64,000 bases of DNA from an uncultured delta proteobacterium (GTDB lineage: Bacteria; Desulfobacterota; Binatia; UBA9968). This document shows positions 2,805 to 41,980 of the stretch, piece after piece. Within the stretch, counting starts at the first letter, position 1; the number at the start of each line of letters is the position of its first letter. Location of the stretch: the NCBI GenBank assembly GCA_963727625.1, contig CAVSHR010000005.1, positions 96,001 through 160,000 of the forward strand, in the 5' to 3' direction. The notes below the pieces were generated by a model. That model worked only from the letters and a program-made list of their open reading frames with translations. It ran no database searches and had not been told where the DNA came from. Position numbers and translations under genes: made by a program.

Positions 2805-3169
2805 GTTCTCTCGCGCAATCGGCTAAGCAGAACTTATTCCTACGCGGCTTCATTGCCGCTCTCGTGGTCGCAACCGCGTTTGCGACGCTCATGTCTTACC
2901 GTCATCTCGTTCCAAAGGGCATTCCCAGGCTGCTCTCCCAGGAGCATGAAGTCCGGCGCGAGCTCGCGCGCGCCGAGCGCATCAATCTTCGAACCGGTGT
3001 CATTTGCGAAGAAGGCATCGTTCGATCCGAAGCGGGGCAGCAATCCTGCACCGGCGCAATTTGTTCTGAGACTTTCGACCAGGTGGTCGGCGCCGCACCG
3101 GCAGTCTTCAGCTTTCCAACCCAGCTCGGCATGGCCGACCTAAATCGTTTCACCGTCCTGAACCTGTGA
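2801..3169 (+). CDS. Hypothetical membrane-anchored protein
   Basis: N-terminal hydrophobic segment; ATG overlaps the aquaporin stop; upstream promoter-like motif. Confidence 0.45.
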   Translation: MSSLAQSAKQNLFLRGFIAALVVATAFATLMSYRHLVPKGIPRLLSQEHEVRRELARAERINLRTGVICEEGIVRSEAGQQSCTGAICSETFDQVVGAAPAVFSFPTQLGMADLNRFTVLNL

Positions 3170-3340
3170 TCCTTTCCGCTTAATTACCCGGCGCAATCGA
3201 GCCCGGGGGGCCTTCAGACACAATTCGCGATACTCGGCACTTCCTCATTGTAGGGGGAGGATTGGGGTCAATTCTCAATAGCGCCCCCACCAGCCGGGAG
3301 CCAAGAAAGGCTATTGAACCAGCCAAGAAGGATCATACCT

Positions 3341-3661
3341 ATGCATACGGTCAATTCACCAAAAGCGACATTTTCAGTTCTCCTCGTAGCTGCGGCCATT
3401 GCCGCCGGCGCCGCTAAAGCGACGCCCGCTAAAGGAGTGATTTCATCCACCCCGGCATCCGCCGTGGATTATTGTCACTTAGAATTTCCCGCAATCCGAC
3501 CAAGCACTCTGGGTACACCGAATCCCCGACTGAAAGAGGCGGCAAGCGGGGACATCGTGGATTACTACGGACCCTGCGACCACGATCCGCTGGGCAAGGA
3601 TGAAGTCGCGGAGCAGGAGCACGAAAATGAAGTGCGCCAGTCTCGCGACAATGGCCTTTAG
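3341..3661 (+). CDS. Small secreted protein with a two-Cys motif (YCHLEFPAI...YYGPCDHDP)
   Basis: Signal-peptide-like N-terminus, AAGAAGGA RBS, two Cys that could form a disulfide. Confidence 0.7.
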   Translation: MHTVNSPKATFSVLLVAAAIAAGAAKATPAKGVISSTPASAVDYCHLEFPAIRPSTLGTPNPRLKEAASGDIVDYYGPCDHDPLGKDEVAEQEHENEVRQSRDNGL

Positions 3662-37621: not shown

Positions 37622-38734
37622 ATGCAGGTCCGATCCGACGCTCACCTCGCCGCTCAATGCGGCATTTGCGGCACGCTGCTGTCCGGCTCGGCCAGCGCGC
37701 TCTACCGAATTTTCGGCATACGACGAAGCCCCCGCAATCCGAATATCTGCACGCGCTGCAGCACTCATATCGAAGAGGGACGAATGGTGGAGATCACGGT
37801 GCTGTTCGCCGATCTTTCATCGTTCACGGAGTTGACCCAGAATCTGGGCGCGGAAAAAAGCCACGAAGTGGTCGACGCTTTCCTACGCATGGCCACGGAG
37901 GTTTTGGTCAGACACGGCGCCTTCATCGATAAATACGTAGGCGACGCGGTCATGGCCTTATTCAACGTGCCGATTCGGCAGGACGATCATGCCCGCCGCG
38001 CCGTCGCCGCCGCCACCGAGGTCGGCGCCGGTCTCAAAAACCTGGCCGCGCGCCTCGGACTGCCCCTCGAAGCTTCCGTCGGCGTCGCCACCGGTCATGC
38101 TCATGTCGGCCGGCTCGGCTCCGACGACAGCAAGGACTACACAGCCATCGGCGACGTGGTAAATCTGGCCGCGCGGCTTCAAGGCAAAGCGGGCGCCGGA
38201 GAGATACTGATCAGCGCGGAAAGCTACGGCAAAGATCCGCGGGAATTTGCCGATGCTCAACCGGAACAAATCGCGCTCAAGGGCTTTCGCCAGCCCGTCA
38301 CCGCCTATCGGTTAAATGGCCGCGAATCGCGCTCACTCGCCAAGAATTTGCCGGAAACCCCGGTGAACCAGCGCACCAGCCTGGGAGCGATCATTTTTAG
38401 CATCCTCGGCGCGCCCTGCGCCGTCGCGACTCTCATCGGCCCGCTCGCCGTGGCTTTGGGCGCCAGCAGCCTGTTCGGTTTGGTGGGAATACTCACATTC
38501 CTCGATCAAAGCGTGGTTCGTGTGCCGATTCTGATTCTAACGACATTGGCTGCGCTCGCCAATCTCTACACGCTCCGTCGCGCCCAGAAGCTGAGAAATG
38601 AGTCAAAGATACCCGCCCATCTCAAAACGATGACCACTTTGGAAAAACGCCGCACGACGTTTGTACTCGGCGCTTCGATTGTGACTCTAGGGATCGTCGC
38701 GTCCGAAGTGATCGCTCACGCCTTGCTGCACTGA
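37622..38734 (+). CDS. Class III adenylate cyclase with an N-terminal CxxC..CxxC motif and a C-terminal membrane domain
   Basis: LFADLSSFT, DKYVGDAVMA, YTAIGDVVNLAARLQ, LKG; CGIC...CTRC; 3-4 TM helices including GAPCAV. Confidence 0.88.
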   Translation: MQVRSDAHLAAQCGICGTLLSGSASALYRIFGIRRSPRNPNICTRCSTHIEEGRMVEITVLFADLSSFTELTQNLGAEKSHEVVDAFLRMATEVLVRHGAFIDKYVGDAVMALFNVPIRQDDHARRAVAAATEVGAGLKNLAARLGLPLEASVGVATGHAHVGRLGSDDSKDYTAIGDVVNLAARLQGKAGAGEILISAESYGKDPREFADAQPEQIALKGFRQPVTAYRLNGRESRSLAKNLPETPVNQRTSLGAIIFSILGAPCAVATLIGPLAVALGASSLFGLVGILTFLDQSVVRVPILILTTLAALANLYTLRRAQKLRNESKIPAHLKTMTTLEKRRTTFVLGASIVTLGIVASEVIAHALLH

Positions 38735-40177: not shown

Positions 40178-40906
40178 ATGCCAGATCCGGTGCTTATGCA
40201 AAACAACGGTGACATCACGACGATAACATTGAATCGGCCCGAAGCGGGCAATCGCCAAACCGACGCCACTTGGGCCCAGGTAACGCATATGTTCGACGAC
40301 GCGGCAAAGAGCGCGCGGTTGATCCTATTCAAGGGCGCGGGCGAAGATTTTTGCATGGGTCGCGAAGCGATGGGCCAACAGCCAGCCACACCTCCCGAAG
40401 CCTACGCGGTGCGCGATCGCGCCCAGACTATATTCAATCTCTACGGCGCCTTTCGCAACGCCAAAGCGCCGATCATCGGCGTCGTGCAGGGCCGTGCCGT
40501 CGGCCTCGGCTGCGCGCTGGCGGCGTTGTGCGATATTACGATCGCCAGCGAAAAAGCGCGGTTTTCCTTTCCCGAGACGGCGCACCGGATCATGCCGACC
40601 ATCGCCTTTTCCGCCCTGGTGGACCGCGTGCCGCGCAAGGCCGCAACCTTCATGATGTACTCGGCGCAAGAAATCGACGCGCACAAAGCGCTCATGTTCG
40701 GTCTCGCAAGCAATGTCGTGCCGGCCAACGAGCTCGATAGCGCTGTGTCAACTCTTATCGACCATATGAAAAAAATGCCGTTCGCCGCGGTGCTCGCGCT
40801 CAAAGAGTACGCCGGCGCCGCGTTCGGCATGAGCACGCAAGGCGCCACCGACTTCGCACGCAACTTGCACGCAACGGTAAATAGTTTTTCGGGCATGCGA
40901 TCGTAG
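40178..40906 (+). CDS. Enoyl-CoA hydratase/isomerase (crotonase) family protein
   Basis: ITLNRPEAGN, FCMG, VQGRAVGLG, CDITIA, FSFPE. Confidence 0.88.
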   Translation: MPDPVLMQNNGDITTITLNRPEAGNRQTDATWAQVTHMFDDAAKSARLILFKGAGEDFCMGREAMGQQPATPPEAYAVRDRAQTIFNLYGAFRNAKAPIIGVVQGRAVGLGCALAALCDITIASEKARFSFPETAHRIMPTIAFSALVDRVPRKAATFMMYSAQEIDAHKALMFGLASNVVPANELDSAVSTLIDHMKKMPFAAVLALKEYAGAAFGMSTQGATDFARNLHATVNSFSGMRS

Positions 40907-40993
40907 GACGAGTTTTTCAAGAAGGTCGTAGCGCGCAGGCGTTGTGCCGATCTAACCCTAACAAACAATCCGTAGCAACAGAGGAGTGACCCA

Positions 40994-41503
40994 ATGAAAC
41001 TTCCCGATTTTCCGAAACCGCCGGTGTCATTGGACCCGAGCGTGACCTATCGCGAAAACCTGATCGAAGCCGACTGCGAGTCGCTTGAGCGCATGCGCAA
41101 AGTCGCCGAGGTGCAGGGTTTCACCATTTATTGCGACGAATCCGAGCGCGTCGGCGGCGAGCACACGGCGCCCTCGCCGCTCGGCTATTTCACCGCCGGC
41201 ATCGGCTTTTGACTGCTCACGCAGATTGCCCGGTACGGGCATATGCTGAAAATCTCGGTCAATAAGGCGCGCGTGCATGTGAGCATGCGCAACAAGCAGG
41301 AAGGCTCGGTTCTCCAAGGCACGGTGAAAGCCAATTGCCTGGGAATCGACACACGCGTGGAGTTGGAATCCACCGAGCCGCCCGAGCGCATCTCGGCGCT
41401 GATCAAAAATGCCGAGAACGGCTGCTTCACCATGCAGGCGCTGTTGGCCCCGGTGCCGTTTACCACCACGGTATCGCTGAACGGCGCACCGTTGGCGCGG
41501 TGA
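40994..41503 (+). CDS. OsmC/Ohr-family peroxiredoxin-like protein, probable selenoprotein (in-frame UGA 41210-41212)
   Basis: ORFs 40994-41212 and 41243-41503 share one frame: ...APSPLGYFTAGIGF-UGA-LLTQIARY...AENGCFTMQAL; the UGA sits at the first catalytic Cys; GAGGAG RBS. Confidence 0.8.
41221..41246 (+). promoter_or_regulatory. Bacterial SECIS-like stem-loop
   Basis: GCAGAU-UGCCC-GGUAC-GGGCA-UAUGC: GC-rich upper stem, G-initiated 5-nt loop 19 nt after the UGA, bulged U. Confidence 0.7.
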
Positions 41504-41513
41504 CGAACGCCCC

Positions 41514-41885
41514 TCACGCAAACACCGACCACAAGAGAAACAGGCCGAAAGCCAAGGCCACAACGCACCACACTCGCACGAACCACGCGCTCTGTCGCTG
41601 CCACCAAGTTAGCAGCGATTCATAACGGGAGTACCCCATCAATGGAATCGAAATGCCGGCCGCTAGAGAAATTACCGCGAGGATTTGCAGAGTGAGCGGC
41701 GCGCGCGATGCGGGGGCGACAATCCATAGCGCTATGCCTAATACCAATCGTAGCGCAGCGGCAAACCAAAACCCGCCTTGGGACTGCCAATAGCGAACAA
41801 AGCTGACGAGCCCGGCAGGAGAGATAACACCATATAGGCCGACGGCCACCACGAATATTGCGACCGCCGCAATGAACAGGATCAC
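41514..41885 (-). CDS. Small 4-TM membrane protein
   Basis: Four hydrophobic segments; AGGAGG RBS. Confidence 0.75.
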   Translation of the reverse strand: MILFIAAVAIFVVAVGLYGVISPAGLVSFVRYWQSQGGFWFAAALRLVLGIALWIVAPASRAPLTLQILAVISLAAGISIPLMGYSRYESLLTWWQRQSAWFVRVWCVVALAFGLFLLWSVFA

Positions 41886-41980
41886 GGTTCACCCTCCTGT
41901 AAATGCGTTTGTGTGACGCCGTGCCGTCTAGCACAACACCCTATGCCTTTTGACGACGACAACCCTGTAACGGGCCAAAG

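Follow-up and report, generated by a model that had tools for sequence, protein, structure and literature searches.

The stretch from 40994 to 41503 on the forward strand of the window (the whole 64-kb stretch of DNA that was analysed, corresponding to positions 96001–160000 of contig C5) is very probably a single intact selenoprotein gene of a known family, and not a broken gene. The complete gene of this 169-aa OsmC-like selenoprotein runs from an ATG at 40994, with GAGGAG sitting 5′ of it, to a TGA stop codon at 41501–41503. Its codon 73, an in-frame UGA at 41210–41212 on the same strand, is predicted to be read as selenocysteine (Sec; U73), the first residue of the UxxT motif, here U-L-L-T.

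Read-through frame and conservation of the UGA

In the open reading frame (ORF) list produced with translation table 11, the frame is broken into two pieces, 40994–41212 (72 aa) and 41243–41503 (86 aa). Translation through the TGA at 41210–41212 was found to yield 169 aa, including ...DESERVGGEHTAPSPLGYFTAGIGF-U-LLTQ...AENGCF, confirming a preliminary description of this DNA in which both parts had been placed in one frame and joined by the TGA into a product of about 169 aa. Two separate small genes, of 72 and 86 aa, could share the frame by chance, as the split list and an ATG at 41243 able to open the second piece might suggest, but the probability of this is vanishingly small: both the Pfam OsmC model PF02566 (residues 55–158; E 3.1e-13, 50.4 bits against 27.5) and the NCBIfam model NF041052, named "OsmC-related (seleno)protein" (residues 24–164, model positions 2–144 of 144; E 1.3e-52, 177.6 bits against a cut-off of 95), span the TGA; an AlphaFold2 model built on a 27-sequence alignment is one compact domain (mean pLDDT 91.1, pTM 0.82), with a helix of residues 62–84 passing through residue 73; and the Cys-type homologues described below are single ORFs.

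The earlier statement that other genes here use TGA as a true stop also proved correct, with TGA terminating 18 of the 44 ORFs in the 64-kb window that reach 250 aa (overlapping shadow ORFs counted) as well as the OsmC-like gene. With TGA serving as a normal stop both in other parts of the window and at 41501–41503, the code is not reassigned. Nor is the internal TGA an assembly error, because contigs of the DNA runs X1, X2, and X3, which belong to three studies, span 41210–41212 and all read TGA there, with neither TGC nor TGT nor any other letter being present. Record 3 of X1 covers 41201–41372 with 0 other letters, record 6 of X2 covers 41117–41572 with 2, both outside 41210–41212, and record 8 of X3 covers 41135–41285 with 0; the source sample may be among these runs. 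The runs contain at most 0.40 of the sampled words, the habitat being taken from run labels alone, and the RNA run X5 reaches only 40768–40996, outside the gene body. Across the whole window, an Rfam scan at gathering thresholds returned 0 families and a tRNA scan returned none, and promoter and terminator consensus scans of 40600–41900 returned nothing.

Conservation of the UGA was followed by a six-frame, stop-tolerant search of the window genome and 40 relatives (41 genomes from one order, 3 families, and 5 genera), giving 110 matches. Each of the best 72 of the 110 carries one in-frame TGA, down to 29% identity, with 2 of these 72 also having a TAG or TAA; the remaining matches comprise 2 weaker ones with TGA and 36 without. 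A TGA-bearing match was found in 37 of the 41 genomes, and although three rows come from an unpublished genome, nothing depends on that genome alone. Of 40 loci extracted, 38 share one alignment column for the TGA, within GF-U-[LM]xx[TS]Q, the exceptions being L044, with TGC, and L056, which is unalignable; the TGA occupies the same column in 11 of 11 loci from public metagenome-assembled genomes (MAGs) labelled Candidatus Binatia, 'Deltaproteobacteria', Thermodesulfobacteriota, Syntrophobacteraceae, Chloroflexota, and Dehalococcoidia. Residues U73, C144, D48, P62, Y65, and N163 are each shared by all 27 aligned members, so that selection is seen to act on both sides of the 'stop'. The counterpart of the UGA in other homologues is Cys: a TGC or TGT codon stands at the Sec column in 14 Cys-type homologues (21 loci were scanned, and the 7 without a match to the motif expression, L068, L069, L075, L076, and L079–L081, were left out), and the solved chains 3cje, 2opl, 2onf, 9wo1, and 1lql have Cys at the column of U73. 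Homologues with Cys or UGA at this column, proposed beforehand as a check of the Sec reading, were thus what the alignments contained.

These counts bear directly on the reading of the gene as a decaying pseudogene of a Cys-type OsmC-like gene, created by a nonsense mutation. The frame split under table 11, the fragmentary public gene calls, one orthologue (L091) spread across three frames, and the two relatives with an extra TAG or TAA would all fit such decay; a TGA held at one column by 38 of the 40 extracted loci and by all 11 public ones, a conserved protein downstream of it, a hairpin that co-varies (see below), and a word-based search of 5.8 billion proteins in which no full-length Cys orthologue was found would not, and the pseudogene reading is hardly credible at all.

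Individual copies do show irregularities. The L091 orthologue, in a complete-chromosome MAG (OZ244621.1, 4136799–4143294 reversed; match at approximately 3001–3496), lies in three reading frames with the TGA column kept, and is either a decaying copy or the product of indel errors in a long-read assembly. The copies L054 (G004:C5) and L061 (G007:C9) look broken; alignment A2 and the tree described below were made without L054, which is frameshifted, and L061, which has an internal TAG, and L056 was dropped because its motif could not be aligned. Four orthologues carrying Chloroflexota or Dehalococcoidia labels (L088, L089, L090, and L092) are 74–78% identical to the window protein, with the same TGA and hairpin, and could reflect inter-phylum transfer, mis-binning, or mislabelling.

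Selenocysteine machinery and the candidate SECIS hairpin

A search for the Sec machinery, the absence of which had been named in advance as counting against a selenoprotein, found all of its parts on the window's own contig. The genes selA (607.5 bits), selB (397.5 bits), and selD (377 bits) are adjacent at C5:715112–719466, all above their cut-offs, and a tRNA-Sec gene lies approximately 50 kb from them at C5:768830 (76.7 bits, likewise above its cut-off), identified by ARAGORN as tRNA-SeC with anticodon TCA, that is, tRNA-Sec(UCA). The selD gene (C5:718540–719466, forward strand) itself has one in-frame TGA, which marks it as encoding a Sec-containing selenophosphate synthetase.

Downstream of the UGA, a core hairpin at 41227–41241 on the forward strand pairs UGCCC (41227–41231) with GGGCA (41237–41241) in a 5-bp stem around the loop GGUAC (41232–41236), the G at the first base of the loop lying 19 nt past the A of the UGA; both sequence and spacing agree with those first described. 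The 66-nt stretch 41205–41270 has a folding energy of −24.1 kcal/mol (z = −3.4); none of 200 shuffles was as stable. An extended stem-loop at 41205–41268, with the UGA in its base stem, was derived as the minimum-free-energy fold of the window sequence only, and is tentative because lower stems differ among clades and lie outside the consensus, the lower stem being missing from the RNAalifold consensus of 35 homologous stretches. The lower stem with a bulged U that had originally been assigned to the hairpin was therefore not borne out; in the minimum-energy fold, the lower-stem bulge is C41220, accompanied by an internal loop, with U41226 unpaired directly beneath the upper helix.

The upper helix, by contrast with the lower stem, is a family feature. 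A gap-free alignment (A1) was assembled from 60-nt stretches (6 nt upstream, the TGA, and 51 nt downstream) of 35 distinct Sec-type sequences, with L029, L036, and L038 omitted as identical over this stretch to L027. From it RNAalifold, unprompted, returned one 6-bp helix, pairing columns 23–28 with 34–39, which correspond to 41226–41231 and 41237–41242. Five of the 6 pairs have changed on both sides in at least one sequence, and stems of different sequence are used by different clades: UGCCC/GGGCA in that of the window gene, and UUUCCC/GGGGAA, GACGC/GCGUC, GCGC/GCGC, and UCGC/GCGA elsewhere. Standard pairs were observed in 92.9% of 210 cells, against a shuffled mean of 68.9%, and the covariation score was 0.531 against 0.139, with 0 of 500 shuffles reaching either value; these shuffle statistics overstate the significance, the sequences being related and the helix lying within coding sequence. 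As a control, sliding the 3′ arm by 1–3 columns left at most 61.4% paired, and the shifted registers of some clades (L048, L052, and L057) were scored as mismatches. Loop positions G30 and U31 (41233–41234) are at least 90% conserved. The compensatory changes in the helix are also amino-acid changes (ARYGH vs. SRYGE vs. TRYAS). In the Cys-type homologues, 27 of 84 cells (32%) are paired in the same register. Scoring each sequence by its best hairpin, whatever the register, gave 5–6 of 6 pairs in Cys forms too; being non-discriminating, this measure was abandoned for the fixed register. Conservation of the hairpin, another check set out at the start, was accordingly found in the form of compensatory changes among the UGA forms, and the interpretation of 41227–41241 as a putative bacterial SECIS-like element specific to those forms is supported.

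The SECIS element of Escherichia coli fdhF is a short stem-loop within approximately 11–20 nt of the UGA, located inside the coding sequence, with G and U in its apical loop and a bulged U. The window hairpin is alike in its G/U apical loop, its short distance to the UGA, and its position in the coding sequence, but it has another sequence, the bulged U of fdhF cannot be made out in it, and clades differ from one another in spacing and lower stem.

Modelled on the established bacterial pathway, decoding would proceed with the hairpin, which starts 14 nt after the UGA, serving as the SECIS: SelB would bind it and bring Sec-tRNA(Sec) to the UGA at 41210–41212, which would be decoded as Sec, and the second TGA, at 41501 and without such a hairpin, would end the protein. 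The codon might instead be read as another amino acid, either through a reassigned code (Trp or Gly) or through near-cognate read-through giving Trp or Cys. A UGA followed by C is a leaky stop context, and in one JGI protein (P0002) the Sec column is filled by W, presumably because the gene caller translated TGA as Trp. This reading is nonetheless highly improbable: TGA ends 18 of 44 long ORFs in the window and the gene itself, the column is that of the catalytic Cys in the Cys-type homologues, the full Sec machinery is present, and the hairpin is specific to UGA forms.

Family placement and proposed chemistry

The protein belongs to a family that is already on record. The parts of the Sargasso Sea study that deal with it (Zhang, Fomenko & Gladyshev 2005, PMC1088965) describe an 'OsmC-like protein' (COG1765/PF02566, motif UxxT) as a new selenoprotein family with 3 sequences and count it among thiol-dependent redox selenoproteins; the corresponding entry of the GOS survey (2008) gives 5 Sec sequences, and the family and its UxxT motif are tabulated in PMC1088965, PMC2398784, PMC9312934, and PMC13188914, including reviews of 2022 and 2026. 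The preliminary description had called the selenoprotein hidden, a term that does not apply, because the family has been listed since 2005 and is covered by the curated NCBI model NF041052; the window gene is an ordinary member of it and not a new kind. The protein scores above the cut-off of that model (168.9 bits in a six-frame genome search) and carries the UxxT motif as U73-L-L-T76, with a UGA-encoded U at the Cys column of homologues. As far as the family's entries in these sources extend, the window gene agrees with them in having Sec for the first conserved Cys of the OsmC domain and, after the UGA, a SECIS-type hairpin whose small apical loop includes G, and no essential difference is seen. 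Its host is a Binatia-type MAG from soil or salt marsh, according to run labels, and not marine plankton, and its genome holds 3 Sec paralogues and 1 Cys paralogue, compared with the 3 and 5 Sec sequences given in the 2005 and 2008 surveys.

Within the OsmC superfamily, the position of the protein is more specific than had been proposed. A Foldseek comparison of the model with the PDB returned 64 matches at E ≤ 0.001, of which the top ranks listed are all OsmC/Ohr-type or structural-genomics relatives, with 2onf the best (E 5.4e-11, TM 0.72/0.86), followed by 1lql, 6mjn, 1vla, and Ohr entries. Among Ohr and OsmC subfamily or equivalog models, only NF052637 (Ohr, Vibrio type) was found at E ≤ 1, with 13.1 bits against a cut-off of 240. 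The protein is a member of a third, poorly characterised branch of the OsmC superfamily, together with 3cje, 2opl, 2onf, and 1lql, and not Ohr or OsmC proper; of the initial assignment to the OsmC/Ohr family, membership of the superfamily stood (PF02566, NF041052, and the fold), and membership of Ohr/OsmC proper did not.

By sequence, the best solved match is 3cje, the Cys-form OsmC-like protein Jann_2040 from Jannaschia sp. CCS1; the single sequence finds it at E 1e-9 and a 27-member profile at E 3.7e-20. Its Cys in G-C-VMTQ stands in the column of U73, and its KGCF in that of NGCF of the window protein; its whole chain superposes poorly on the model (rmsd 17.5, TMq 0.51). The four solved branch members named above have Cys and not Sec, and were named 'OsmC-like' or 'hypothetical' by their depositors. 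The Ohr/OsmC peroxidases (Pseudomonas aeruginosa Ohr, 1n2f; Xylella fastidiosa Ohr, 1zb9; and Thermotoga maritima OsmC, 1vla) share the fold, with a Foldseek probability of 1.00, and the same two redox positions, but their sequence likeness is weak, the profile reaching E 2e-6 with 1vla and E 1e-4 with Ohr entries. Where Ohr and OsmC carry a catalytic Glu, 10 residues ahead of the catalytic position, the window protein has Leu63 (P-S-P-L).

Ohr and OsmC operate by a two-step mechanism, involving first a peroxidatic and then a resolving residue. By analogy, Sec73 would take the place of the peroxidatic Cys of the OsmC fold, its selenolate reducing a hydroperoxide; the resulting selenenic acid at Sec73 would form a selenenyl-sulfide with Cys144, and a thiol reductant, for example thioredoxin, a lipoyl protein, or glutathione, would regenerate the enzyme. 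Cys144, in AENGCF (codon 41423–41425, forward strand), is the likely resolving residue from its role in the OsmC/Ohr mechanism; it is invariant in 27 of 27 members and aligns with the second Cys of 3cje, 2onf, 9wo1, and 1lql, with 2opl lacking a second Cys. On balance, the protein may be regarded as a likely hydroperoxide reductase acting through Sec73 and Cys144. Since it belongs to the third OsmC branch and no model of Ohr or OsmC proper is matched (NF052637 being far below its cut-off), its designation as an organic peroxide reductase is one that we infer; of the Sec-dependent organic peroxide reductase originally described, the Sec reading is upheld by the conserved UGA, the hairpin, and the machinery, and the peroxide reductase part has the standing of this analogy.

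A genuine selenoprotein could also use the Sec73/Cys144 pair for another thiol/selenol redox task, such as disulfide or persulfide reduction, or action on a protein or lipoyl partner. The names under which 3cje, 2opl, 2onf, and 1lql were deposited, the second Cys missing from 2opl, the unmatched Ohr and OsmC equivalog models, and the name of NF041052, which states no activity, leave room for such a role, and it is possible, at a probability clearly below an even chance. The fold and both redox positions agree instead with Ohr/OsmC peroxidases, genes for an AhpD-like peroxidase-related protein and for a thioredoxin lie next to paralogues of the window gene, and the thiol-dependent redox grouping in the relevant part of PMC1088965 is likewise set against it.

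The relationship between Sec and Cys forms was examined by maximum likelihood; the tree, with 37 Sec rows and 14 Cys rows (4 of 55 ids being without a row), requires at least 2 changes of Sec/Cys label. The window gene falls in a clade with L023–L025 (support 98/98), within an all-Sec clade of 25 rows (100/99). A Cys clade of 10 rows, including L044 with GF-C-MFSQ, is sister to a Sec clade with GF-U-MFSQ (99/94). The tree was rooted at its midpoint, so that no direction is assigned to the Sec/Cys changes.

Paralogues, gene neighbourhoods, and annotation

The genome contains four NF041052 members above the cut-off, three with Sec, including the window gene, and one with Cys. The second Sec copy lies on the reverse strand at C6:209199–209621 (L093:2967–3470; NF041052, 173.1 bits), and 3′ of it, on the same strand, is a gene for a 284-aa thioredoxin-TPR protein with WCGPC (L093:1849–2703; TIGR01068, 98.2 bits against 96.8). 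A cluster of thioredoxin-containing ORFs was seen in 16 of 31 loci, by a crude stop-to-stop ORF clustering that is swamped by shadow ORFs of GC-rich DNA and from which nothing but this thioredoxin association could be used. The third Sec copy, also an NF041052 member, is on the forward strand at C2:390566–390994 (L094:2971–3516). Directly upstream of it, on the same strand, is a gene for an AhpD-like 'peroxidase-related enzyme' (C2:389873–390424, equivalent to L094:2374–2925; TIGR01926, 141.1 bits against 81.8), whose NHCSYU motif (CxxU) includes an in-frame TGA, and a GST-fold gene lies 3′ of it (L094:3743–4528). The AhpD-like gene is, as predicted from its reading frame, a second kind of selenoprotein; the NHCSYU motif was found upstream, within approximately 500 nt, in 3 of 5 loci of the clade of the third Sec copy. 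The Cys copy, with GF-C-MFSQ, a TGC codon, and no hairpin, is the forward-strand NF041052 member at C2:45807–46187 (L044).

The surroundings of the window copy are of another kind, comprising an enoyl-CoA hydratase gene upstream and, on the other strand, a small membrane ORF and a PhoD phosphatase gene. No conserved redox partner was found to adjoin this copy in 14 loci. The hydratase gene is kept only in the closest relatives (L082 and L024/L085, the latter two on one contig), and the PhoD gene and membrane ORF are kept in 0 of the 14; a conserved operon partner of the window copy was thus considered and rejected.

Several distinct Sec clades of OsmC-like proteins occur in the order of the window genome. 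A lineage-wide expansion of Sec-containing OsmC-like proteins in Binatia can tentatively be envisaged, in which copies would be tied to different reductant partners (thioredoxin-TPR in one case, the Sec AhpD-like and GST-fold proteins in another) in a selenium-based peroxide-defence network with repeated Sec/Cys switching, a proposal to which we give somewhat under an even chance. A narrow search of the literature on Binatota and selenocysteine, a weak basis for novelty, found no account of such a network, and novelty, if any, is confined to how far the paralogues have multiplied in Binatia and how they are wired to partners there.

The main value of the gene is for annotation, and here the expectation that standard annotation would mishandle it was realised. 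The word-based search of 5.8 billion proteins recovered 33 relatives, in 32 of which coverage of the query is 55% or less: P0003 begins just past the TGA, P0034 stops just before it, and the longer protein P0002 is the one with W at the Sec column. Such fragments, together with the W protein, are the footprint of gene callers cutting or mistranslating a Sec gene, so that public protein sets contain 93–103-aa fragments or a Trp-containing mistranslation. Cutting the gene at the UGA in this way distorts the numbers of domains, orthologues, and selenoproteins counted in Binatia MAGs. The present gene and its two Sec paralogues add a well-supported member and two further copies to a family known mostly from few marine metagenome reads, and the natural Sec and Cys sister clades provide material for studying SECIS evolution within coding sequence, with no new question being opened. 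Elsewhere in the window, the forward-strand gene at 37622–38734 encodes a protein of 370 aa that has a catalytic domain of the adenylate/guanylate cyclase type (PF00211, E 3.9e-16); only the loci of the closest relatives retain it in the vicinity of the OsmC-like gene.
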